Shown here: piece by piece, positions 1 to 31,135 of the stretch
Layout: each line of letters starts with the position of its first letter
Numbering within the stretch: the first letter of the stretch is position 1
Source of the DNA: Escherichia phage slur09
Length of the DNA stretch: 64,000 nucleotides
Reading direction: 5' to 3' (one strand)
Sequence record: NC_028840.1
Notes under the pieces: model-generated
What the model saw: only the letters and a program-made list of their open reading frames with translations
Databases searched by the model: none
Told to the model about the DNA's origin: nothing
Made by a program: the position numbers and the translations under genes

Positions 1-127
1 CCTATATCTAGGATCCGCCGTTAAAAGAGCCAATGAACTTCGTTTACAATTGCACGGTGAAAATGCTGTTATAGAAACTTTTGATTCTACAAAATCTTTA
101 CCAACTTTAGAGGAACTTAATAAATGA
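1..127 (+). CDS. HNH/AP2-type homing endonuclease, 3' end only (5' end lies outside the window)
   Basis: Frame open from window edge to TGA at 125-127; translation ...RANELRLQLHGENAVIETFDSTKSLPTLEELNK closely matches the C-termini of the HNH genes at 7031-7567 and 63556-64000. Confidence 0.6.
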   Translation, partial: LYLGSAVKRANELRLQLHGENAVIETFDSTKSLPTLEELNK

Positions 128-876
128 GTGTACTAGTGGGTCTGCATGGCGAAGCAGGTGCAGGAAAAGATACCGTTGCAAAATTAATTATCGATTGGTG
201 TAATGACACGTATCCAACGTGTTTATCCCGTCGTTATAGTTTTGCTAAGCCCGTTTATGAACTTGCATCCGTAATCCTCGGTGTAACTCCAGAGTTTCTA
301 GGAGAGCGCAGGGGGAAAGAGGTTGACCAATGGTTTACGGTCACACAATCTCAATTGGAGCGAGCCAGAGATGTGTGGTTTAAGTACGGTATCGATAAGT
401 TTGAAGACTTCTCGTACGTTTGGCCTATTTTTGAGGAAAAATACCTTAATCCTCAACAACTTATCTCAGAGAATAAAGAAGACGGACTTTATAGTTTATT
501 TATTTCTCCGAGAAAAATGTTACAGCTCGTAGGGACAGAGCTAGGAAGGCAGCTGGTGCATGAACGCATTTGGCTCATAATTCTGGAGCAATCCATCGCT
601 AAAGACGACCCAGACGTCGCCGTAATAACAGATGTTAGATTCCCCAATGAAGGAGAGCTACTCAGAGAAACAAACCATTTAGATATGGATTCTTTGATAG
701 TAAATGTAGTACCCGCTGAGCAGAAGCTTACTATTAAATCAGATCATCCATCTGAAAGTGGTATTCCTGCAAAATATATTACTCACGAATTAGTCAATAA
801 ATTCGATGGTATCAATAACCTTAAACTAGAAGTTTATAACTTCTGTGACTTAGAGCTAGAACCACTAGTTGGATAA
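124..876 (+). CDS. dnk: deoxynucleoside monophosphate kinase
   Basis: 250 aa; N-terminal P-loop GLHGEAGAGKDT; ATG overlaps upstream stop; position in early module. Confidence 0.7.
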   Translation: MSVLVGLHGEAGAGKDTVAKLIIDWCNDTYPTCLSRRYSFAKPVYELASVILGVTPEFLGERRGKEVDQWFTVTQSQLERARDVWFKYGIDKFEDFSYVWPIFEEKYLNPQQLISENKEDGLYSLFISPRKMLQLVGTELGRQLVHERIWLIILEQSIAKDDPDVAVITDVRFPNEGELLRETNHLDMDSLIVNVVPAEQKLTIKSDHPSESGIPAKYITHELVNKFDGINNLKLEVYNFCDLELEPLVG

Positions 877-888
877 TCAAGGATCGCT

Positions 889-1488
889 ATGACTAATAAA
901 AAAGAAGAAAAGACTAACCTGTTTCACTCCATTCGCCAATCTAATGAGTATACCTTTTTCTTTGATGAAGAATTAGGTCCGCCAGATGAATACCGTGATT
1001 TATCAATGGTACTTATGCAAGCAAATGAGGACGACGAAATTAATCTGATGATTAATGGCCCTGGTGGTTATGTTGATACTGCTGCACAGTTATCTAACTT
1101 AATTGCTAATTGCCGTGGAACAGTTATAGGACATCTGGTTGGTCCTAGTGCTTCTGCTTACTGCACAATTTTCCTATCCTGCCATGGATGGGTAGTACAT
1201 CCACATGCTACGCTAATGGGACACACGTTCTCCGGCGGATTCTGTGAGAAGGGTCAAGAAATCAAGAAAGCCTATGAATCTTACAATAAGTTCGTAGAAG
1301 ATATGATGCTAGATGTCTACTATCCGTTCTTCTCAATAGACGAAATCGACGAGATGGTAAAAGACAACAAAAATATCTATCTAGATAGCAAAGAAATCCA
1401 TAAGCGTATTGAAATCTTGGCAAAATATCGATCTGAGCAATATAATAAAGCCCAGTTACCTCAATCCGAGGAGCATAACGAAGAGTAA
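889..1488 (+). CDS. ClpP-like serine protease (S14-like fold)
   Basis: 199 aa; LMINGPGGYV...GPSASAY...LMGHTFSGG resembles ClpP INSPGG / active-site Ser / His contexts. Confidence 0.55.
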   Translation: MTNKKEEKTNLFHSIRQSNEYTFFFDEELGPPDEYRDLSMVLMQANEDDEINLMINGPGGYVDTAAQLSNLIANCRGTVIGHLVGPSASAYCTIFLSCHGWVVHPHATLMGHTFSGGFCEKGQEIKKAYESYNKFVEDMMLDVYYPFFSIDEIDEMVKDNKNIYLDSKEIHKRIEILAKYRSEQYNKAQLPQSEEHNEE

Positions 1489-1496
1489 GTAATTTT

Positions 1497-1530
1497 AAGC
1501 CAGGGTTTAACGACCCTGGCTTTTCTTTTA
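1497..1530 (+). terminator. rho-independent terminator after ClpP-like gene
   Basis: Hairpin AGCCAGGGT/ACCCTGGCT followed by TTTTCTTTT. Confidence 0.65.
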
Positions 1531-1592
1531 TCTAAAATTCTTCTTGACAACGATAAAATTTTATGCTCCAGAAGTGATCTTTAAAAACACAT

Positions 1593-1620
1593 TGTAATTT
1601 TCCTCCAAAATTAGTATAAT
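1593..1620 (+). promoter_or_regulatory. sigma70-type promoter upstream of putative holin
   Basis: TTGTAA-N16-TATAAT. Confidence 0.5.
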
Positions 1621-1644
1621 GGTAATGGTTAGAGGAGGTTACAA

Positions 1645-2301
1645 TTGGAAAAGTTCTTACAATTATTAACAGTACTGCTCCAAGAAGCGAAAGATCCAGC
1701 ATCGCTTCTTAAACGTCTGCTAACTATCTTAGTTGCTGTCATTATTTTCTTATTTGTTAGTAATACTAGCGAGGTGATGTCGTTCTTAAAGACTTTCTCC
1801 ACGTCTGCGGTTCTACAGGATGTTCAAACTCAAAGGATAGATAACTTTCCTAATGTAGCTAGAGAAAAGAGCATGGTTCTCTTTTCTCAAACGGGTGCAG
1901 ATGCTGTTTTTGTCGTCAAGTATAAACCCGATGCCATTAATGATTATTCTAACATTATTGCATGGGAAAGCAATGCGCAATTAGATAGGGCTGACTTGGC
2001 CGATAAAGCGGTAAATAAAACGTCTGAGCTATATAGACGTCACTTAGAGGGCTTTAACTACGCATCGGATTTAAGTGTAAAAGTAAATAAATACATGGGG
2101 TTAAATATACCTGCGTTTAAGAACGTTACTTTTAATTACATATACACTTGTCCGTATTTCAATCTAAACAATATCTATGCTGGATATATTGGTATTGCTT
2201 GGAAAGATAATCCTGTAGATGCGGCCGATTCTGAGAAATTTAACGAGTATTTAACAAAGCTCTGTTCTCCACAACAGAGATCTTTAGGTAGATCAATATG
2301 A
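1645..2301 (+). CDS. putative holin (TTG start)
   Basis: 218 aa; N-terminal hydrophobic helix LLTILVAVIIFLFV; RBS AGAGGAGG 6 nt upstream; stop overlaps endolysin start (ATGA). Confidence 0.5.
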   Translation: MEKFLQLLTVLLQEAKDPASLLKRLLTILVAVIIFLFVSNTSEVMSFLKTFSTSAVLQDVQTQRIDNFPNVAREKSMVLFSQTGADAVFVVKYKPDAINDYSNIIAWESNAQLDRADLADKAVNKTSELYRRHLEGFNYASDLSVKVNKYMGLNIPAFKNVTFNYIYTCPYFNLNNIYAGYIGIAWKDNPVDAADSEKFNEYLTKLCSPQQRSLGRSI

Positions 2302-2711
2302 GTTTTAAATTTGGTAAAAATAGCGAAAAACAATTAGCTACCGTTAAGCCAGAGCTACAAAAAGTAGCTCGTAGAGCTTTAGAATTATCTCCATATGATT
2401 TCACGATCGTACAGGGTATTCGTACAGTAGCACAAAGTGCCCAGAATATTGCTAATGGTACTTCATTTTTAAAAGATCCTAGTAAAAGCAAGCATATTAC
2501 TGGGGATGCCCTTGATTTTGCTCCATACATTAATGGCAAAATTGATTGGAATGACTTAGAAGCATTTTGGGCAGTTAAAAAGGCTTTTGAACAAGCTGGT
2601 AAAGAACTAGGCATTAAACTTCGTTTTGGTGCTGATTGGAATGCTTCAGGAGATTATCACGACGAAATAAAACGTGGTACCTATGATGGCGGTCATGTCG
2701 AACTAGTTTAA
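2298..2711 (+). CDS. lys: endolysin, L-alanyl-D-glutamate peptidase (M15-like)
   Basis: 137 aa; HITGDALD ... DWN ... GGHVE zinc-binding pattern; same length as T5 endolysin. Confidence 0.85.
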   Translation: MSFKFGKNSEKQLATVKPELQKVARRALELSPYDFTIVQGIRTVAQSAQNIANGTSFLKDPSKSKHITGDALDFAPYINGKIDWNDLEAFWAVKKAFEQAGKELGIKLRFGADWNASGDYHDEIKRGTYDGGHVELV

Positions 2712-2720
2712 TTAATAACT

Positions 2721-2747
2721 GAGGCGGGAATATTCCCGCCTTTTTAG
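2721..2747 (+). terminator. rho-independent terminator after endolysin
   Basis: Perfect hairpin GGCGGGAATATTCCCGCC followed by TTTTT. Confidence 0.7.
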
Positions 2748-2788
2748 GCAAAGGGGGCTTTAATAATTTTTGAAGACAGGAGAAAGCC

Positions 2789-3205
2789 ATGTTTGCAGAA
2801 CTATTCACTATGATGCTGCTAGGTATCTGGAAAATAAGTCTAGTAGTATTCGTTTTAATGATAGTCTTTACTATCATTGCATTAACTACCCGAAATAGCT
2901 TATTAATAAAGGTTATTCACGGACTAGAGTATATAATTATGGGTTCATTCGGCGTTTGTAAATGCAATTGCCATAGAGATACGAAATATTGTTGGTTATG
3001 GATGGAACTAGAGAATCCTATATCCATAGCTTTGGCTGTTTCATTCGGCATGATTCTTATGGCCCTTACTCTAGCATTAATACCTTTGATGTTAGCTGGG
3101 GGAGTTACAGCGTATTTCACCCTTTTCTCCCCGATACTTATGTACTCAATTTACCCAATAACTATGTATCTAGTTAGGAAAAGATTTATACATGCAGTAG
3201 ATTAA
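2789..3205 (+). CDS. polytopic membrane protein, unknown function
   Basis: 138 aa with about four hydrophobic segments; RBS AGGAGAAAG upstream. Confidence 0.4.
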   Translation: MFAELFTMMLLGIWKISLVVFVLMIVFTIIALTTRNSLLIKVIHGLEYIIMGSFGVCKCNCHRDTKYCWLWMELENPISIALAVSFGMILMALTLALIPLMLAGGVTAYFTLFSPILMYSIYPITMYLVRKRFIHAVD

Positions 3206-3218
3206 GATAAAAAAGTAG

Positions 3219-3247
3219 TTGACTTTTAGCCCCAGTTATTATATAAT
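3219..3247 (+). promoter_or_regulatory. strong T5-type early promoter
   Basis: TTGACT-N17-TATAAT, A-rich upstream, ATAAATT motif downstream. Confidence 0.65.
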
Positions 3248-3280
3248 ATATACATAAATTAGTTAAGAGAGGTATATATT

Positions 3281-3712
3281 ATGTCTGATCGTTTCTATAC
3301 TCAAATGGCGGAACATTTTCGTATACCACATTACGAGCTAAACATTGCACTCCGTGATCATGACTCTCCTGAGTACAAAAAGCTCGAAAAGAAAGCGGAA
3401 AAATCTATTGATACAAAGGTAGGTGCATCTATGTCTAAGGGCAAAAAGTTAACTCGTCTTGATCTTAATAAAATTTTAACCGAACTTTTGGGTACTGATA
3501 TTGAAGGTGCTAAATTACCACTTCTTGTACTAGAGACTATGATTAAAAAGGTCAAAAATAAAGAATATAAGAAGGTAGAAGTCCCAGAAGGCAGATTGAA
3601 GGCTCCTTATCAGGAAGCATTAACCGAGTGTTTGGGTGTAAATCTTGATTTGAGCACCGCAACTGTAAAAACTATGAAAAACTTCTTAGAGGCCATTAAT
3701 AACTATGAGTAA
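3281..3712 (+). CDS. hypothetical protein
   Basis: 143 aa ORF downstream of promoter at 3219-3247 with RBS AAGAGAGG. Confidence 0.5.
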   Translation: MSDRFYTQMAEHFRIPHYELNIALRDHDSPEYKKLEKKAEKSIDTKVGASMSKGKKLTRLDLNKILTELLGTDIEGAKLPLLVLETMIKKVKNKEYKKVEVPEGRLKAPYQEALTECLGVNLDLSTATVKTMKNFLEAINNYE

Positions 3713-3995
3713 ATTAGTATATCTATTGAAAGGTTCCACTTGCAATCCTTGCAAAATGTTTGAGCCAGTATTTGATAAAGTAGTCAGTGACTATAATTTG
3801 GAAATCCATAAAGAGACTGATAATACAGAATTAATGCAGAAATTTGGTGTGCGCCAAGTTCCTGTAGTAGTTCTGGCGGATCGCTTACCTAATGGTCGAG
3901 TAGAAGCTAATCATATTCTGATTGGACGTCAGCTTCGTAAAGAAACTATGCACGAAGCTATTAAAAATTTCCTGGATGATAATCCAGAGGACTAA
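3705..3995 (+). CDS. thioredoxin/glutaredoxin-like protein
   Basis: 96 aa; C-x-x-C motif CNPC in thioredoxin-like N-terminal context; start overlaps upstream stop. Confidence 0.5.
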   Translation: MSKLVYLLKGSTCNPCKMFEPVFDKVVSDYNLEIHKETDNTELMQKFGVRQVPVVVLADRLPNGRVEANHILIGRQLRKETMHEAIKNFLDDNPED

Positions 3996-4000
3996 TAAAC

Positions 4001-4034
4001 AAAGCCTGATCTTAGCTGATCAGGCTTTTATTTT
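4001..4034 (+). terminator. rho-independent terminator
   Basis: Hairpin AGCCTGATC/GATCAGGCT followed by TTTATTTT. Confidence 0.65.
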
Positions 4035-4036
4035 AC

Positions 4037-4065
4037 TTGCTTTTTGCTAAAAATTTTGGTATAAT
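4037..4065 (+). promoter_or_regulatory. strong T5-type early promoter
   Basis: TTGCTT-N17-TATAAT. Confidence 0.6.
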
Positions 4066-4092
4066 ATTTATATAGATTGATAGGAGGATTAA

Positions 4093-4338
4093 ATGTTAGC
4101 AGAGCAAGCAAAACGTTTAGCTAGAGTTAATAGAGCTGCTCTTCTCAAGAGCCGAAAGAAAACGTATAGATGGGTTAAGCGGAGGATAGTATCTTCTGTC
4201 GAGATTGGAGGTTCTTTTGTACAGCTTAATCGTGACGAAATTAGTTATGAAGCTATAAAAGCCCTCAATAAAGAGGGTTATACTCTCAAACTATCAAATA
4301 ATTATGGTACAACTATTTTAAATGTTATTTGGGAATAA
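4093..4338 (+). CDS. hypothetical protein
   Basis: 81 aa basic ORF with RBS TAGGAGGA upstream. Confidence 0.45.
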   Translation: MLAEQAKRLARVNRAALLKSRKKTYRWVKRRIVSSVEIGGSFVQLNRDEISYEAIKALNKEGYTLKLSNNYGTTILNVIWE

Positions 4339-4340
4339 TT

Positions 4341-5204
4341 ATGAAAAAAGAATTTAATGTGCATAAAACACTAGTAGTACCTGATGATGTTAACTTATTC
4401 TTTGTTGGGGATATTCATGGATGCAACGATTTACTAGAAGATGCACTACAATTAGCTGGCTATAACGGCAAGAAAGACTGCGTTGTATGCGTAGGGGATT
4501 TAATTGATCGAGGCACGCAGAACCTACAAGTTTTAGCCAAATTCCTGTATAATCCACGCTTTATCAGTGTCCGTGGTAATCATGACCAATTTATGATTGT
4601 GGGAGATTGGGCTAACTGGATGTATAACGGTGGTATGTGGGCCATGAATGAACTAGATGCAGATACCATTAAAAATATTGCTGAAGACATGGCTGAAAAA
4701 ATGCCAGTATTTCTGACTGTATTGCATCGTGGTAAAAAGTATGGTGTTGTTCATGGTGGTGTACCTTTTACGTACAAAGAATGCGGTAACGAAGTAGAAA
4801 CCCCAGTATGGGATAGCCTTATTGCACAAGTAGAAACAGCTAAGGAAGACCCACATGACCATCCTGGATACCATGTTGAGCCATACTTATGGGATCGAGA
4901 TGTAATCCAAGAAATAGGTTTTCACTTAGCTAAAAATGGTGAAGAACACTCACATTTCCAGCGTTATGCAGGGTTTAAAGAGAAATACATGGTAGAAGTA
5001 CCTCCGGTTAATGGAGTAGACTTTGTATTTCATGGGCATACCGGAGTACCTTACCCGATTTTATACCAGAACCGTGTTTACCTAGATACTGGCGGTGTTT
5101 TCAACGGGCAGTTGACGGTTGCGCAGGTTAACGATGAAACTGGCAAAATCACCACATTTACCACAGACAAAAATGATAGCTGCGGTGTACAGAGGATCCT
5201 TTAA
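4341..5204 (+). CDS. Ser/Thr protein phosphatase (calcineurin-like metallophosphoesterase)
   Basis: GDIHGC, GDLIDRG, GNHD, HGG, GHTG phosphoesterase motifs; start taken at ATG 4341 (MKKEF) rather than track start 4329. Confidence 0.75.
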   Translation: MKKEFNVHKTLVVPDDVNLFFVGDIHGCNDLLEDALQLAGYNGKKDCVVCVGDLIDRGTQNLQVLAKFLYNPRFISVRGNHDQFMIVGDWANWMYNGGMWAMNELDADTIKNIAEDMAEKMPVFLTVLHRGKKYGVVHGGVPFTYKECGNEVETPVWDSLIAQVETAKEDPHDHPGYHVEPYLWDRDVIQEIGFHLAKNGEEHSHFQRYAGFKEKYMVEVPPVNGVDFVFHGHTGVPYPILYQNRVYLDTGGVFNGQLTVAQVNDETGKITTFTTDKNDSCGVQRIL

Positions 5205-5491
5205 TGAATGATAGAATGAAAGAAGTACAAGAAGAATTACGAGCAATGCGTATTGATGCCCTTCGTTGGAGGGCATTAGTTAATGCTTTCGTCAAAGGAG
5301 ATACCGGAGTAATATATTCTGGAATAGCAGTCAATTTTTGTTTTAATTCTCCTGCTGAAATAGAGATAGAAACAAGGCTTACTACCTACCTTAATGAGGT
5401 AGACCTTAAGGGAGGAGAGACTCCCGAGGAGTTTAAAACTAGAGTATTAACTACCTGGGTTGATAATTTAATACAAAAAAGGAGTAAGTGA
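5204..5491 (+). CDS. hypothetical protein
   Basis: 95 aa ORF, start overlaps upstream stop. Confidence 0.45.
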   Translation: MNDRMKEVQEELRAMRIDALRWRALVNAFVKGDTGVIYSGIAVNFCFNSPAEIEIETRLTTYLNEVDLKGGETPEEFKTRVLTTWVDNLIQKRSK

Positions 5492-6081
5492 TGAAGGTTA
5501 AATTCTGGTCGGACTTGCACTTAGACCACCCTGGAGCACTACGTTTCCGTCCGTGGTTTAAGAACATGAAAGAGCACGATGAGTATATTCTAGATACTTT
5601 GTCCAAGCATATTGGTAAACGAACAAAACTTATTTTGCTAGGAGATATTGCAGTAGGTCGTGAAGGCCTGGCCAAATTAAAGTCGGTTATCCACAATGTC
5701 CCTAATCAACTCATTATGGGTAATCATGATGCGGAGCGTCAAGGGCTGAGTATTAGGGACTTAGCGGAAGTTTATGACGATATTCAAGCTCTAGGCAAAC
5801 AGACTGGAGGTGGCAAAAAGTTTTGGCTATCTCACTGCCCTTTGCATCCCAATGAACTTCGTGGCAAACTAAATATTCACGGACATGTACATACTACTTC
5901 CCTACGTGATCCACGTTATATTAATGTCTCATTTGAAATGAGTAAAACTCCAATTCCGCTAGAGGATATTGTGTCTGGTAAGTTTACTAGTTATGATAGA
6001 GTAGTTAATTGTACTACCGGCGAAGTATTACAAATAGGGGAAGATGTAGCTGCTGTATTACGTGGCGATATAAATGTCTAA
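5491..6081 (+). CDS. metallophosphoesterase
   Basis: DLHLD, GD, GNHD, GHVH motifs; RBS AAAAGGAG 6 nt upstream of ATG 5491. Confidence 0.65.
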   Translation: MKVKFWSDLHLDHPGALRFRPWFKNMKEHDEYILDTLSKHIGKRTKLILLGDIAVGREGLAKLKSVIHNVPNQLIMGNHDAERQGLSIRDLAEVYDDIQALGKQTGGGKKFWLSHCPLHPNELRGKLNIHGHVHTTSLRDPRYINVSFEMSKTPIPLEDIVSGKFTSYDRVVNCTTGEVLQIGEDVAAVLRGDINV

Positions 6082-6188
6082 GTATATAGCCGAGGCTATT
6101 ATTAAACGAATCATACAAGCGATAGCAATACTTATAATCATTTGTATTACTATTGGCACAGGATTAGGCATTTTAACTAAAAGTTTTA

Positions 6189-6218
6189 TTTGCTAAAATG
6201 CTTAAGTTTCTGTATAAT
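6189..6218 (+). promoter_or_regulatory. strong T5-type early promoter
   Basis: TTGCTA-N18-TATAAT followed by ATAAATT and RBS. Confidence 0.65.
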
Positions 6219-6248
6219 TACTTTATAAATTGATGAGAAGGAATCAAA

Positions 6249-6680
6249 ATGAACAAAGTTGATAAAGCTCTAGTTTTCGCAGCAGCAGATAAGTTTGAAC
6301 AAGTTAAGGCAACTTTCCGAACCTTGTTCCAGTCTTACGTTCAGGATAAGTCTAATCCTATTTCTGAACGCTTGATGGTTTGGGAGTGTCATGCTTGCAA
6401 TGCCCTGCTAATTGCTGATTACCGTAGTGATATAGATAAAGATCTTTGTGAAATCCTTATCCCCAAGGAAGCAGAACGTTATCAGTTAATCTCTTTCCAA
6501 GATTTGGCGGAGCATATCATTCCTGATGATCTTTGGGATAAATACTATGGGGATCCTGAAGATGAAGGAATGACTCCAGAAGCCTGTATTGAGCTGATCT
6601 GCAAAGATCATCCTGAAATTGCGGAGAAATTTGAAAAAGTTTTTGCTTCTGAGTTCTCCGGCGTTGTTAACGATTGGTAA
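6249..6680 (+). CDS. hypothetical acidic protein
   Basis: 143 aa ORF behind promoter 6189-6218. Confidence 0.5.
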   Translation: MNKVDKALVFAAADKFEQVKATFRTLFQSYVQDKSNPISERLMVWECHACNALLIADYRSDIDKDLCEILIPKEAERYQLISFQDLAEHIIPDDLWDKYYGDPEDEGMTPEACIELICKDHPEIAEKFEKVFASEFSGVVNDW

Positions 6681-6697
6681 GTAATTAAAAAATTCAG

Positions 6698-6726
6698 TTG
6701 CTTTAAGCCTTAAAATTCTGTATAAT
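6698..6726 (+). promoter_or_regulatory. strong T5-type early promoter
   Basis: TTGCTT-N17-TATAAT followed by ATAAATT; near-identical architecture to 6189-6218. Confidence 0.65.
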
Positions 6727-6758
6727 AAGTTCATAAATTAATGAGAGAGGAAATTCTA

Positions 6759-7037
6759 ATGGAAAACATGACTAAAGATTTCGACGCCTCTAACCTTACT
6801 AAGACTGAAATGGCCAATGTATTAGCAATTCTCCTCGACATGCAAGGATTTGAGGGGCAACTGATGAAAATGTCTATTCCGGCGATGAAGAAGATGTATG
6901 ATTCTCTTAACAAGAACGCTATGGCCTTTAACTTAGCAAAACAAGAGGCACGCTTTGCTAAGGAGCATCAAGCAGTGGCAGAACGCCGAGCAGCTAGCTT
7001 TGAGCGTGAAGTCAAGCAATTAAAGAAAAAATGCTAA
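6759..7037 (+). CDS. hypothetical protein
   Basis: ORF behind promoter 6698-6726; start chosen at ATG 6759 behind GAGAGAGG (track start 6741). Confidence 0.45.
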   Translation: MENMTKDFDASNLTKTEMANVLAILLDMQGFEGQLMKMSIPAMKKMYDSLNKNAMAFNLAKQEARFAKEHQAVAERRAASFEREVKQLKKKC

Positions 7038-7567
7038 CACAAGAAAGATTAAAAGAGTTATTTGAATACCGCCCGGAAACGGGCGAGTTTATAAGGAAAG
7101 TCAGTAGAGGACGAGGTAAAGCAGGTAGTATTGCTGGTAGTCCTGATAAGGATGGTTATATATTTATTGGGATAAATAGAAAAAGATATGCAGCCCATAG
7201 ATTAGCCTTTTTGTACATGGAGGGGTATATTCCAAATCTAGTACACCACTTAAATAACATAAGAAAAGATAATAGATGGTGTAATTTAAAAGATTGTACG
7301 TCCCAAGAGAATAATCGTAGCAAAATCGCTCAATCTAATTAGGGGTACTTAGGAGTTACCTGGAAAAAAGATCGACAACAATGGAGAGTCCAGGCCAGAA
7401 GCGCCGAAAGCATTACAGTACACGGAGGCTACTTTAGGTACCTAGATTTAGAGTTGGCAGTTCAAAGAGCTAATGAACTACGTTTAGAACTACATGGGCC
7501 TAATGCTGTTATAGAAACTTTTGATCATACAAAACCCTTACCTACTTTAGAGGACTTAAATAAATGA
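7031..7567 (+). pseudogene. HNH/AP2 homing endonuclease interrupted by an in-frame TAG at 7340-7342
   Basis: HNH part (AHRLAFLY...HHLNNIRKDNRWCNL) ends at TAG; same frame continues GYLGVTWKKDRQQWRV...ELHGPNAVIETFDHT to TGA 7565-7567, colinear with the intact paralog at 63556-64000 where Ser occupies the TAG position. Confidence 0.55.
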
Positions 7568-7845
7568 TTACAGAAATTCTCATTGGATTGCTAGTGCTTA
7601 TGACACTAGTAGCGATTGGCGGAGTTATTGGGATTGTGAATGCACGAAAAAGCATGGAAAATATGCTTATTACTAATGATGGACTACACCACCGTTTGCT
7701 AGAGCAAGAGCAGGACATTGAATTAGCACAAAGACGCTCGGATATTCTTAAGGAAAAATTAAATAATATAGAAGCAATAGTTGGGAATAATAAATTACCT
7801 GCTAAAGTAATGCGTACACAGATAATCACGGAGATTAAAAAATGA
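7564..7845 (+). CDS. small membrane protein
   Basis: 93 aa, N-terminal TM helix then coiled-coil-like charged region. Confidence 0.45.
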   Translation: MITEILIGLLVLMTLVAIGGVIGIVNARKSMENMLITNDGLHHRLLEQEQDIELAQRRSDILKEKLNNIEAIVGNNKLPAKVMRTQIITEIKK

Positions 7846-8087
7846 TGATGTTTATTCTAGCGTTTTATTTGATTGTAGTTGGTGTACTGGTTACTAAGTA
7901 CCATACATGGGCACCAAAGAATATAGTTAAGGTAGCACTGTTTGTTATTCCAGTCCCGCTTATTATACTTTCTATGTTACTGGTGATGTTAATCGGTAAA
8001 ATAACAAAAACCGATATTAAACGTATTGCTGATGAATTGCAACAGTCTTGTGATATGGTAGAGGATATTCTTAAAGATGAAGCTTAA
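7842..8087 (+). CDS. small membrane protein
   Basis: 81 aa, two hydrophobic segments; ATGA overlap with upstream gene. Confidence 0.45.
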   Translation: MMMFILAFYLIVVGVLVTKYHTWAPKNIVKVALFVIPVPLIILSMLLVMLIGKITKTDIKRIADELQQSCDMVEDILKDEA

Positions 8088-8403
8088 TTTTAATGAATTA
8101 AATACCTTACATAAGATACTACAGTTTGTGAATAATAATATTAGCATTCCAGATGATACGCTAGAAGTTCTCATGTTAATCGAGAAAAAGGTAGGAATTG
8201 AAATTGAGGACTCCTGGAAACCGCTTTCTGTATTAACACCCCTTAATATGAAAGTGATAGTTAAAAATATCGATACTGGTGAAGAATGTAAGATGATTCG
8301 TAAAGAACTAGCTGATAGCTATTCACCAAAGTCTGTAGTAATGTACCATGATGATACCGCTAAGACTCTACAGACAGCTAATTACGTATGGCGTCTCCCA
8401 TGA
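8077..8403 (+). CDS. hypothetical protein
   Basis: 108 aa ORF. Confidence 0.45.
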   Translation: MKLNFNELNTLHKILQFVNNNISIPDDTLEVLMLIEKKVGIEIEDSWKPLSVLTPLNMKVIVKNIDTGEECKMIRKELADSYSPKSVVMYHDDTAKTLQTANYVWRLP

Positions 8404-8502
8404 TTGATTTAGTACCAATTACTGCGGGGCTAATAGCACTATTAGTGCTTGCAGTTTTTATTATTGTGGAGTAGGCCAAAGTAATAAGGAGACTTAAAAA
8501 CA

Positions 8503-8703
8503 ATGATAAAACGTCTTGTTTATCAGGCACCAAAGATTGTAACTGAGTATTTTGTATTACTGCCTCAGATTGTATTTCTAACAGCATTATTTAATACACT
8601 TTTTCGACATCTAGGAATAACGGAAAATATCTTCTACACTTCTGGGTTACTTCCTTTTATGTACGAAGGCATCATCGTGGCAATCAACGGAGTTCGTAAA
8701 TGA
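8503..8703 (+). CDS. hypothetical protein
   Basis: 66 aa ORF with RBS AAGGAGA upstream. Confidence 0.35.
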   Translation: MIKRLVYQAPKIVTEYFVLLPQIVFLTALFNTLFRHLGITENIFYTSGLLPFMYEGIIVAINGVRK

Positions 8704-9161
8704 CAGCACTACAACAACTACAGAATTACTGGTTTGATAACCAATTTAACGATCTTTTCATCCAGTTGTTTGTCGAAACGAACGGACGCTTCAACTACCG
8801 ATTCTTTAACAAGTTTCACGAAACAAAATTCTCGCATACAGAAATTAATGCAGCGATCCAAGACCTAACTGGTTCTAAAGTAGTTCAATATCGTGAAGTA
8901 GACTTTACACCAGATTGTTTCGGGTTTGAATTGTTTAAGAAAGCATATAAATTTGGTAAGTTTGAGGATGCTCGTCAATGGGTTCATGATTTCTGGTACA
9001 ACACTGATATTGTTCCTAGTCGTGTACTGATTCTTAACTGGATTGCCAAACAACATCCGCCTAAAGCTCAATCGTCCTTCTTACCAACTGATACAGGAAA
9101 CCTCTACCATGACAGAAAAGAAAAATCCATTATTGGAGCAGATGAAGGAGTGGGAGAGTAA
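8700..9161 (+). CDS. hypothetical protein
   Basis: 153 aa ORF, start overlaps upstream stop. Confidence 0.5.
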   Translation: MTALQQLQNYWFDNQFNDLFIQLFVETNGRFNYRFFNKFHETKFSHTEINAAIQDLTGSKVVQYREVDFTPDCFGFELFKKAYKFGKFEDARQWVHDFWYNTDIVPSRVLILNWIAKQHPPKAQSSFLPTDTGNLYHDRKEKSIIGADEGVGE

Positions 9162-9480
9162 TATTGAAACTGGTCTAATAGACGGTGAAGATATTGTCAA
9201 CTCCATGCTAGAAGTAACAGTAGATAACATTAATCCTATTTTGGCTGGAGAAACCTCAGATCTTATAGGACTCTCTAGCACATTTGATTCTTTGGCTAAA
9301 TTAGCTTTAGACGATGAAGAGATAACCAAAGAAGATCTCGCTACAGCTATGAATATGGCTATTAATGCTTACATCGGTAAACGTACTGATGAACTTGGTA
9401 AACAGATCAATAAGCGTGATGCTACGCTAGGTCTTATGGAAACGGCCACTATGTTAAGAAGTGGTAAACAACTTCATTAA
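9142..9480 (+). CDS. hypothetical acidic protein (start uncertain)
   Basis: Track ORF 9043-9480; ATG 9142 has GGAG 5 nt upstream; alternative ATG at 9109. Confidence 0.4.
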   Translation: MKEWESNIETGLIDGEDIVNSMLEVTVDNINPILAGETSDLIGLSSTFDSLAKLALDDEEITKEDLATAMNMAINAYIGKRTDELGKQINKRDATLGLMETATMLRSGKQLH

Positions 9481-30502: not shown

Positions 30503-31135
30503 ATGACACAAGCTGCTATTGACTATAACAAGTTAAAATCAGCACCGGTTCATTTAGATGCTTATATTAAATCTATTGATAGCGAATCCAAAGAGGGTGT
30601 TGTAAAAATCCGTGGATTCGCTAATACAATTAGTAAAGATCGCGCTGGTGATGTAATTCCTGCCTCCGCATGGAAAACATCTAATGCACTTGCTAACTAT
30701 ATGAAAAACCCGATTATTCTTTTCGGACACGACCATCGTCGTCCAATCGGCAAGTGTATTGATCTTAATCCTACTGAAATGGGTCTCGAAATCGAATGCG
30801 AGATCTATGAAAGTTCTGATCCAGCTATCTTTTCACTAATTAAAAACGGTGTACTGAAAACTTTTAGTATCGGATTCCGCTGCCTAGATGCAGAGTGGGA
30901 TGAAGCTACTGATATATTTATTATTAAAGATTTAGAACTATACGAAGTTTCGGTAGTTTCTGTACCTTGTAATCAGGACTCGACATTCAATCTCGCTAAG
31001 AGCATGAATGGTCATGATTATACTGAATGGCGTAAATCTTTTACTGCAATAAGTTCTAAAGCTGTCCCAGCTCAAGAACGTAATCTTTCTGAACTAGAAA
31101 AACTTGCGATAGCTTTAGGCTACGTTAAAGAATAA
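30503..31135 (+). CDS. prohead protease (pb11-like)
   Basis: 210 aa immediately upstream of major capsid gene. Confidence 0.55.
   Translation: MTQAAIDYNKLKSAPVHLDAYIKSIDSESKEGVVKIRGFANTISKDRAGDVIPASAWKTSNALANYMKNPIILFGHDHRRPIGKCIDLNPTEMGLEIECEIYESSDPAIFSLIKNGVLKTFSIGFRCLDAEWDEATDIFIIKDLELYEVSVVSVPCNQDSTFNLAKSMNGHDYTEWRKSFTAISSKAVPAQERNLSELEKLAIALGYVKE

Follow-up and report, generated by a model that had tools for sequence, protein, structure and literature searches.

The systems closest to the gene analysed here are its own orthologues in phage T5 and other Demerecviridae, the cellular ClpP peptidases (MEROPS family S14, such as E. coli ClpP, PDB 1yg6/3mt6), the ClpP-related head-maturation proteases of phages (NF045542, phrog_1684 and phrog_94) and ClpP1 of Listeria monocytogenes. 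In cellular ClpP, the N-terminus is a conserved gating loop and helix A, which serve pore gating and coupling to the ATPase. The docking pocket for the ClpX and ClpA loops in the E. coli enzyme is formed by residues that we take to be Y60, Y62, F82, I90, F112 and L114. The head-maturation proteases are phage proteins that have no ATPase partner. Listeria ClpP1 carries a Ser98-His123-Asn172 triad, in which the Asn replacing the catalytic Asp leaves the enzyme inactive on its own; it is unable to bind AAA+ chaperones and gains activity when assembled with ClpP2 in a mixed complex (PMC9257651).

The gene itself is the orthologue of T5.042 of phage T5 (YP_006870), annotated as a "putative ATP-dependent Clp protease", a label carried across hundreds of T5-like genomes. 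T5.042 is one of eight core genes whose identity exceeds 80% in 185 Tequintavirus genomes (PMC12639943). When it was knocked down in T5, the outcome was a "Not Fit" score, which denotes no measurable cost (PMC11879866, supplement); the T5 primase received the same score, so this call carries little weight. No functional study of the family to which this protein belongs (phrog_1827) was found in the literature on T5, phage and ICP1 ClpP, virion proteomics, fitness screens and T5 transcription, and preprints on phage gene essentiality held no data on a T5.042-type gene. The gene is already known, and the present work is a well-supported re-annotation rather than a discovery.

The analysed window is a stretch of 64,000 nucleotides of Escherichia phage slur09 (NC_028840.1). 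It shares 99.2% identity with phage BB1 in the first 9.4 kb and 86-97% elsewhere, and by this comparison it is a mosaic T5-like genome. The DNA of the gene is 100% identical to that of BB1, where it bears the same "putative ATP-dependent Clp protease" label, and 96-98% identical to other Tequintavirus records; at the protein level, identity to the largest cluster is 98%. T5.042 and the Demerecviridae orthologues are the same gene with the same flanks and show no difference of substance from the window gene. The 199-residue reading frame lies exactly where a preliminary description of this DNA had placed it, and the features around it are listed in the table below. The dnk stop codon at 874-876 leaves a spacing of 12 nt to the protease gene, and no terminator-like site is apparent between the two, which agrees with the earlier assignment to an early module. 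The terminator behind the gene is followed by a promoter-like site upstream of the holin gene, so that holin and endolysin apparently form a separate unit. We likewise find a stand-alone ClpP-like protease gene that lies far from the S78 prohead protease gene and bears no relation to it.

Table. Features of the protease gene and its surroundings in the window
Feature	Coordinates	Strand	Evidence or remark
dnk, deoxynucleoside monophosphate kinase	124..876	+	directly upstream of the protease gene
Shine-Dalgarno AAGGA	879..883	+	5 nt ahead of the ATG; sequence inspection
ClpP-fold serine peptidase gene (T5.042 orthologue, 199 aa, phrog_1827)	889..1488	+	ORF, Pfam, PHROG, fold
Gly59-Gly60, ClpP "PGG" oxyanion-hole motif	1063..1068	+	invariant, 164/164
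Ser89, predicted nucleophile	1153..1155 (TCT)	+	aligns with ClpP Ser97 (Ser111 of the precursor); 164/164
His112	1222..1224 (CAC)	+	aligns with ClpP His122 (His136 of the precursor); 164/164
Asn162	1372..1374 (AAT)	+	position of ClpP catalytic Asp171
Intrinsic terminator, 11-pair hairpin and T-run	1497..1532	+	3' of the protease gene, the terminator-like hairpin and T-run being placed at 1497-1522; BB1 annotation agrees
T-type holin	1645..2301	+	conserved downstream neighbour of the protease gene
L-Ala-D-Glu peptidase endolysin	2298..2711	+	conserved downstream neighbour
S78 prohead protease	30503..31135	+	Pfam Peptidase_S78 E=9.6e-19, phrog_80 E=2.8e-50; head module

The likeness of the protein to ClpP is far beyond chance. 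The profile-HMM search proposed in the preliminary description returned Pfam CLP_protease (PF00574) with E=4e-8 over residues 41-139 only, its 33.7 bits lying above the gathering score of 20.2, and phrog_1827 with E=2.1e-90, residues 1-198 matching profile positions 5-201 of 202. An AlphaFold2 monomer model (pLDDT 81, pTM 0.78) was compared with the PDB using Foldseek, and the best 50 listed matches were all ClpP structures (best E=3e-9, TM 0.6-0.65), Listeria ClpP1/2 (4ryf) being among the top ones. A profile search against the PDB also supported the fold assignment, so the term ClpP-like is borne out by Pfam, PHROG and structure alike. The preliminary description had named unalignable catalytic residues and an unrelated fold as grounds for abandoning the assignment; neither was found, because the serine and histidine align and the fold is that of ClpP. 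With the cellular enzymes the protein shares, besides the fold, the "PGG" motif, the handle helix, the Gly-Gly strand and an alignable position for the catalytic Asp.

In contrast, the sequence identity to E. coli ClpP is only about 18-21%, and none of the NCBIfam ClpP equivalog or subfamily models was passed, with scores of 13.7-22.8 bits against cut-offs of 228-347 (TIGR00493, 15.9 against 308.6; the best ClpP model, NF001368, 22.8 against 249). The preliminary description had spoken of a ClpP paralogue, which these scores do not support, every such model having failed by a factor of at least ten in bits. The top NCBIfam match, although below threshold, was NF045542, "head maturation protease, ClpP-related" (40.9 bits against 120), and the second-tier PHROG match was phrog_1684 (E=6.5e-21). 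By these scores, the protein is not an orthologue of cellular ClpP, and phrog_1827 is a phage-specific family, a distant sister of cellular ClpP that scores closer to the ClpP-related prohead proteases. The phrog_1827 profile was also matched by all 48 of the diverse relatives examined, and the family comprises at least 503 clusters at 50% identity (representatives matching over their full length with E≤1e-30). A structure search of BFVD gave about 19 phage proteins with E≤1e-13, followed by a gap to generic ClpP-like proteins at 1e-9. The long family members (ICP1, Vequintavirus and Vibrio phages D151 and F88) carry C-terminal extensions in which no Pfam domain was detected; these tails are acidic and resemble coiled coils or scaffold domains. 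Homology to defence or anti-defence systems was considered and rejected, as the PADLOC models gave no match with E≤0.01 for the window protein, P0016 or ICP1 gp211.

The dnk neighbour is kept in nearly all Demerecviridae examined, and the order spanins-dnk-protease-holin-endolysin is annotated in Epseptimavirus, Sugarlandvirus and a metagenomic T5-like contig, with positionally equivalent genes in phages AAS21 and Proteus phage 2. Outside the T5-like phages, the neighbours are nrdAB, PhoH, DHFR, ligase or DNA polymerase genes, and the family occurs in the nucleotide-metabolism and replication clusters of many large lytic phages. The gene order running from nrdAB/PhoH to the protease gene recurs in other phages. 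A membrane or lysis role was also considered, since all Demerecviridae examined place the gene inside the spanin-holin-endolysin cluster. It was rejected: the terminator parts the gene from the holin, family members outside the Demerecviridae have no lysis neighbours, and none of the 11 members checked has a hydrophobic segment (maximum KD19 1.55). The reading that we favour, and regard as probable, is that of an ATPase-independent, phage-specific ClpP-fold serine peptidase which is cytoplasmic and accessory to host takeover or recycling.

Alternatively, the protein might be a morphogenetic or virion-associated protease, for example the enzyme responsible for cleaving the T5 tape-measure protein pb2 after R1127, or a packaged protein. 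Purified virions of phage BF23 yielded three of its peptides at a low level (PMC10644984), a presence that a purely cytoplasmic early enzyme leaves unexplained. In the passages of PMC10038345 that describe the pb2 cleavage, no protease is named. The matches to head-maturation proteases, which were the best among the curated models, and the scaffold-like tails of the long members point the same way. However, the title of a 1973 paper cited in PMC10038345 points to a host role in tail-protein cleavage, and in the BF23 particles the protein gave about 4% of the prohead protease signal, together with DHFR (PMC10644984), so that carry-over is possible. Unlike the genes of the head-maturation proteases, this gene is not beside portal or capsid genes and lies in the early region, between dnk and holin and outside the structural module, while the head module of the phage has its own S78 protease. 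Myoviruses and N4-like podoviruses likewise hold the family in nucleotide-metabolism clusters, and among the loci examined its members were never found in head modules. We therefore consider a morphogenetic role unlikely.

Gene neighbourhoods also suggest a link to the phage PhoH-like ATPase, with which the protease could form a functional pair or module. In ICP1, Vibrio phage F88, one Vequintavirus, Pseudomonas phage KIL1 and Alteromonas phage V22, PhoH is found on the strand of the protease gene and zero to two genes upstream of it; in KIL1 the two genes share 8 nt. PhoH is also encoded by T5, as T5.098, and by BB1. In environmental viral loci, which were found with a narrower alignment (A3), single-protein scans having given near-identical relatives only, PhoH stands 0-1 kb upstream of the protease gene in 18 of 80 and downstream in one. 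These 80 loci, however, collapse to seven clusters at 60% identity, and the nrdAB/PhoH figures drawn from them are therefore not based on 80 independent cases. T5-like phages keep PhoH about 31 kb away, adjoining nrdAB, and at N4-like, KVP40-like and other loci no PhoH stands next to the protease gene. The nrdAB-PhoH-protease order may simply be an inherited block of early genes, and PhoH is not an AAA+ unfoldase. Such a partnership is accordingly quite doubtful, and we give equally little weight to its extended form, in which the two proteins would be a conserved two-component, ATP-coupled module for recycling host macromolecules that has been split in T5-like phages and whose triad is now Ser-His-Asn.

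The active site was examined in an alignment of 164 sequences (163 family members and E. coli ClpP). Here, the catalytic-triad comparison that had been suggested earlier brings Ser89 and His112 onto their ClpP counterparts, whereas the third position is Asn162 and not the Asp of the ClpP Ser-His-Asp triad. Gly59, Gly60, Ser89, His112, E152 and R173 are invariant in the family and all present in the window protein; E152 and R173, as well as F147, K121 and D49, belong to the near-invariant residues of the phage family that are absent from E. coli ClpP. At the third triad position the 164 aligned sequences have Asp in 133 cases, Glu in 18, Asn in 8 and Thr in 4. Asn is confined in this alignment to the T5 clade, and more distant family members with the same gene context have Asp. 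Within the T5 clade, the Asn162 codon varies synonymously between AAT and AAC, and dN/dS for the gene is 0.03-0.12 at dS of 0.2-1.3. Judged by these substitution patterns, the gene, Asn162 included, is under strong purifying selection. With its Ser-His-Asn triad, the protein of the T5 clade probably retains activity, though reduced or conditional.

The same residue raises the possibility of a subunit resembling Listeria ClpP1, an impaired Ser-His-Asn heptamer that would stack on host ClpP, become activated and alter or poison ClpXP/ClpAP. Asn162 falls exactly at the catalytic Asp position, as does Asn172 of Listeria ClpP1, the Listeria ClpP1/2 structure is among the top structural matches noted above, and an evident chaperone docking site is absent from both proteins. 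Since Listeria ClpP1 with its Asn is inactive alone, the T5 protein might need a partner for activity. The handle helix (residues 123-144) and the Gly-Gly strand are kept, so stacking on another ring, including a host ClpP ring, would be structurally compatible. However, the handle segment has no special similarity to host ClpP, and the overall identity to E. coli ClpP is low. Listeria ClpP1 is a true ClpP paralogue that is paired with ClpP2 of the same genome, whereas the phage protein has no known partner ring. Its close relatives have Asp at this position in the same gene context, from which it follows that the function of the family does not depend on Asn. A ClpP1-like role thus appears highly improbable.

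A coupling of phage ClpP-like rings to host ClpX or ClpA, which would redirect ATP-dependent degradation, had been put forward in the preliminary description, and the ClpP fold, the retained handle region and the database name "ATP-dependent Clp protease" are in its favour. The preliminary description was also right that the window has no cognate ATPase: among ORFs of at least 100 aa, the strict Walker-A pattern [AG]xxxxGK[ST] revealed no Clp-type ATPase and matched only pb4 (a chance match), a Rad50/SbcC-like protein and an SF2 helicase, although this pattern misses deviant P-loops such as that of dnk. No Clp-type ATPase is annotated in BB1 (record positions 1-106,038), and the supplement to the T5 CRISPRi-ART paper, with its T5 re-annotation, contains no mention of "ClpX". 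These observations concern phage genes and are compatible with use of a host unfoldase; as the phage has none, any ATPase would have to be that of the host.

The presumed docking regions nevertheless speak against such coupling. Residues 1-21, at the place of the ClpP gating loop, are unconserved in the family, have pLDDT values of 35-59 and lack similarity to ClpP, the hhalign match beginning at residue 22. In a mapping by sequence alignment at about 20% identity, the residues that fall on the presumed docking pocket are N52, M54, N74, H82, V102 and H104, four of which are polar (N52, N74, H82 and H104); position 52 varies widely within the family. The scores against ClpP equivalogs amount to one tenth of the cut-offs or less, and no co-variation is seen across hosts that range over Vibrio, Alteromonas and Pseudomonas. 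With the gating loop not conserved, the presumed pocket mostly polar and no Clp-type unfoldase seen in the window or in the BB1 annotation, recruitment of host ClpX/ClpA is most unlikely, as is a dead decoy. The latter, a catalytically inactive protein or scaffold acting by binding only, had likewise been proposed earlier, and changes of the triad Asp to Asn do strongly reduce activity in classical serine proteases, as textbooks have it, and in Listeria ClpP1, but it deserves very little credence against a serine, a histidine and oxyanion glycines that are invariant in all 164 sequences, the Asn clade included, a dN/dS of 0.03-0.12, and a third position that accepts Asp, Glu, Asn or Thr as is typical of an orienting residue.

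The favoured reading, an ATPase-independent phage peptidase, draws on the same features: in a protein that apparently has no conserved gating loop or docking pocket, encoded by a phage without an unfoldase, they argue that the enzyme very probably needs no AAA+ partner and acts as a self-contained peptidase, which is likely to form rings. Its targets in the infected cell would be peptides, loosely folded proteins or particular proteins, and it would have an accessory function in host takeover or recycling, expressed alongside the nucleotide-salvage enzymes. Activity, oligomeric state and substrates of the family members are in all this inferred.

The name "ATP-dependent Clp protease", in use since the annotation of the T5 genome, probably misleads, because the protein is not a ClpP orthologue, has no evident features for docking an unfoldase and comes from a phage that encodes none. 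The gene belongs instead to a large family that is confined to phages and associated with blocks of nucleotide-metabolism genes, and in the T5 clade selection maintains an Asp-to-Asn change in the active site. If the pairing with PhoH were true, it would provide the first functional handle on PhoH, which is among the commonest phage genes of unknown role. If host proteins or defence factors are what these peptidases degrade, the family would represent a widespread and unstudied tool of host takeover.

The protease gene of this T5-like (Tequintavirus) phage is the orthologue of T5.042 (YP_006870) and has a DNA-level match in 524 phage records. Its novelty is low, since it is already known and annotated, with hundreds of records naming it 'putative ATP-dependent Clp protease' or 'ClpP'. 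The stand-alone ClpP-like protease of the preliminary description was confirmed by the intact ORF, the ClpP fold and the profile check against ClpP-type families (Pfam CLP_protease, 33.7 bits vs a threshold of 20.2). A phmmer search of PDB sequences returned only ClpPs, save one chance match at ~E=0.5 (best 3q7h, E=2e-5). The family profile improved the best E-value to 2e-18; the matches listed were again all ClpPs, and no solved structure of a family member was found among them. The AlphaFold2 model (pLDDT 81, pTM 0.78) gave TM scores of 0.6-0.65 against ClpP structures across ~160 residues. By sequence and model together, the protein is ClpP-like in fold and active site.

Its sub-cut-off NCBIfam scores, its membership of phrog_1827 and its family-specific residues show that the protease is not a ClpP in the strict sense. 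All NCBIfam ClpP equivalog or subfamily models scored 13.7-22.8 bits against cut-offs of 228-347, and the top match, 'head maturation protease, ClpP-related' (40.9 bits), lay under its cut-off of 120. The full-length PHROGs match was phrog_1827 (E=2e-90), with ClpP-type head-maturation families as the next tier. An exhaustive profile search yielded at least 503 family members at E<=1e-30, each representing a cluster at 50% identity and matched end to end, and a viral structure library gave ~19 phage proteins at E<=1e-13, followed by a gap down to generic ClpP-likes at ~1e-9. Residues E152, R173, F147, K121 and D49 are near-invariant in the phage family and absent from E. coli ClpP. K121, E152 and R173, kept in 142, 163 and 160 of 164 aligned sequences, sit in the handle strand and C-terminal helices and could form family-specific assembly or regulatory contacts. 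Many family members are longer (300-350 aa), with a strongly acidic C-terminal extension that resembles a coiled coil and in which neither a Pfam domain nor a transmembrane segment was found.

The gene has an AAGGA Shine-Dalgarno site 5 nt 5' of its ATG. It appears to be the last gene of a transcription unit common with dnk and separate from the holin and endolysin genes, since the dnk stop codon is 12 nt from the protease start, a terminator follows and a promoter-like site precedes the holin gene. The terminator, an 11-pair hairpin with a T-run, is annotated as such in the nearest GenBank record, Escherichia phage BB1. Lysis genes of T5-like phages are split (window 1-2711), with spanins 5' of dnk and with holin and endolysin 3' of the protease, beyond the terminator; dnk and the protease are two non-lysis genes inside this cluster, kept across the T5-like genera examined (loci L010, L011, L012, L016, L017 and L021).

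Identity to BB1 is 99.9% in the first 3 kb of the window, 99.2% in the first 9.4 kb and 86-97% in the remainder. The window is a mosaic relative to that record (1-9363 at 99.2%, 14601-63559 at 86-97%), with a replaced segment at ~5209-6093. A few kb 3' of the protease, two ORFs match BB1 serine/threonine protein phosphatases by position and correspond to T5 YP_006863 and YP_006862; the second lies inside the segment unlike BB1. The pre-early genes (A1, dmp) directly follow the structural genes here, as they do in the BB1 record; the assembly therefore appears to have collapsed or permuted the terminal repeat.

Positions of the protease gene and its neighbours in the window, and of homologous loci (positions within each retrieved locus, handle in brackets)
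Source	Feature	Position	Strand	Remark
Window	dnk, dNMP kinase gene	124-876		upstream of protease
Window	protease ORF	889-1488	+	intact, 199 aa
Window	K121, E152, R173 codons	1249-1251, 1342-1344, 1405-1407
Window	hairpin and T-run	1497-1522		3' of protease
Window	promoter-like site	1592-1620
Window	T-type holin gene	1645-2301
Window	endolysin gene	2298-2711
Window	phosphatase-position ORFs	4329-5204, 5488-6081
ICP1 (L002)	PhoH-protease; long protease	3253-5951; 4971-5951		nrdAB ... PhoH, two small genes, protease ... ligase
Vibrio phage F88 (L007)	PhoH-protease; long protease	2936-4918; 3992-4918		nrdB ... PhoH, one small gene, protease ... ligase
Vequintavirus WalterGehring (L003)	PhoH-protease; long protease	3548-5861; 4812-5861		nrdDG, PhoH, one gene, protease
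Pseudomonas KIL1 (L004)	PhoH-protease	4235-5579		phoH overlaps protease start by 8 nt
Environmental, e.g. L069, L071, L093	PhoH-protease
KVP40-like Vibrio phage PVA23 (L005)	DHFR-protease	3378-4636		DHFR overlaps protease start
T4-like or related contigs (L018; L019)	DHFR-protease	5385-6750; 5340-6813
Two metagenomic contigs	protease locus			thyA, ligase, DHFR, protease, topoisomerase II
N4-like phage	protease locus			nrdAB, one gene, protease
N4-like contig	protease locus			DNA polymerase ... protease
Vibrio phage D151 (L015)	long protease	3396-4358		overlaps endolysin start; no holin annotated between

Epseptimavirus, Sugarlandvirus and a metagenomic T5-like contig share the annotated order i-/o-spanin, dnk, protease, holin, endolysin. 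Genes equivalent by position are present in Pantoea phage AAS21 and Proteus phage 2, where 'hypothetical protein' is the only annotation of the AAS21 spanins and of the Proteus phage 2 spanins and dnk. In a Vibrio T5-like phage, a hypothetical gene separates dnk from a 320-aa protease that overlaps the endolysin start. Outside Demerecviridae, tblastn found homologues in 1,301 phage records, and in all contexts examined there the protease lies among nucleotide-metabolism or replication genes, not head genes. A morphogenetic or virion protease, cutting for example the tape-measure protein pb2, is accordingly improbable. The protein does occur at a low level in purified virions of the close T5 relative BF23 (3 peptides, ~4% of the prohead-protease signal; PMC10644984), and passages of PMC10038345 that describe the cutting of T5 pb2 after R1127 name no protease for it. 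T5.042, listed as 'Ambiguous, ATP-dependent protease, phrog_1827', scored 'Not Fit' in a T5 transcriptome-wide knock-down screen (PMC11879866 supplement); this is weak evidence of dispensability, because the T5 primase likewise scored 'Not Fit' (PMC11879866). T4-like and related contigs have the protease directly after dihydrofolate reductase (DHFR). DHFR and the Clp-like protease are the two unexpected non-structural proteins of purified BF23 virions (PMC10644984).

In several unrelated large phages a PhoH-like ATPase gene lies 0-2 genes 5' of the protease on the same strand. A partnership with phage PhoH is nevertheless very unlikely. The two genes are adjacent in Alteromonas V22 (CDS-146 and CDS-147; PMC7289586), and among 80 environmental viral loci retrieved with the family alignment, the same-strand upstream genes included NrdB in 41, NrdA in 21 and PhoH in 18 (0-1 kb off), with one NrdB and one PhoH downstream; this count overstates independence, since clustering at 60% identity reduces the loci to 7 groups, five of them positive. 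In T5-like phages PhoH lies ~31 kb from the protease; in BB1 it adjoins nrdAB, frd and td at this distance.

The active site was compared in an alignment of 164 sequences (the window protease, 162 relatives and E. coli ClpP, whose reference sequence is identical to PDB 3mt6 over 207 residues); four alignments cover this region. ClpP Ser97 and His122 have their counterparts in Ser89 and His112, and the 'PGG' oxyanion motif has its own in Gly59-Gly60; these residues are invariant in 164/164. At the position of catalytic Asp171 the window protease has Asn162. This position holds Asp in 133 sequences (counting E. coli ClpP), Glu in 18, Asn in 8, Thr in 4 and Ser in one. Asn is confined to the T5 clade (relatives at least 57% identical), and more distant Demerecviridae (Sugarlandvirus FZ41, Pantoea phage AAS21, Proteus phage 2) have GAT (Asp). 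Judged by sequence comparison, the Asn form is under selection, with no decay: five Asn-clade orthologues compared in pairs give dN/dS values of 0.03-0.12 at dS 0.2-1.3, the only variation in the Asn162 codon (AAT/AAC) and in the codons for Ser and His is synonymous, and the gene is one of eight core genes that stay above 80% identity in 185 Tequintavirus genomes (PMC12639943). Given this constraint, and since Asp, Glu, Asn and Thr are all accepted at the site, Asn162 probably tunes rather than kills the predicted activity. Listeria ClpP1 likewise has a Ser-His-Asn triad; alone it is inactive and unable to bind AAA+ chaperones, and stacking on ClpP2 switches its activity on (PMC9257651). Mixed rings of the phage protease with host ClpP, formed in this fashion, are very unlikely.

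Pairing with host ClpX/ClpA, also proposed at the outset, found no support, and such docking is highly improbable. The profile-profile alignment with E. coli ClpP starts only at residue 22, and residues 1-21 are not conserved and poorly modelled. What we take to be the hydrophobic docking pocket of E. coli ClpP in ClpP-activator structures (Y60, Y62, F82, I90, F112, L114) aligns with N52, M54, N74, H82, V102 and H104, and position 52 varies strongly across the phage family. Features for the use of host ClpX/ClpA are not evident in the sequence or the predicted model. Among window ORFs of at least 100 aa, the strict Walker-A motif [AG]xxxxGK[ST], which misses deviant P-loops (dnk has one), was carried only by an SF2 helicase, a Rad50/SbcC-like protein and, by chance, pb4; no Clp/Hsp100 unfoldase was found among them. 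No Clp-type ATPase is annotated in BB1 (record 1-106,038), and the supplement to the T5 CRISPRi-ART paper, T5 re-annotation included, does not contain 'ClpX'. A dead decoy, the other role initially suggested, is hard to credit given the invariant Ser, His and Gly-Gly and the low dN/dS.

We therefore lean towards an early, cytoplasmic ClpP-fold serine peptidase that is ATPase-independent and probably ring-forming, since the handle helix and the Gly-Gly strand are kept. Such a protease would be made alongside early nucleotide-salvage enzymes, and would work without an unfoldase or ATPase partner. Its cytoplasmic substrates may be peptides, loosely folded proteins or particular proteins, and its role an accessory one in host takeover or recycling. 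Of use here are the corrected assignment to a family and a clade-specific Ser-His-Asn triad kept by selection, and the recurrent nrdAB/PhoH-protease gene order offers a testable lead.
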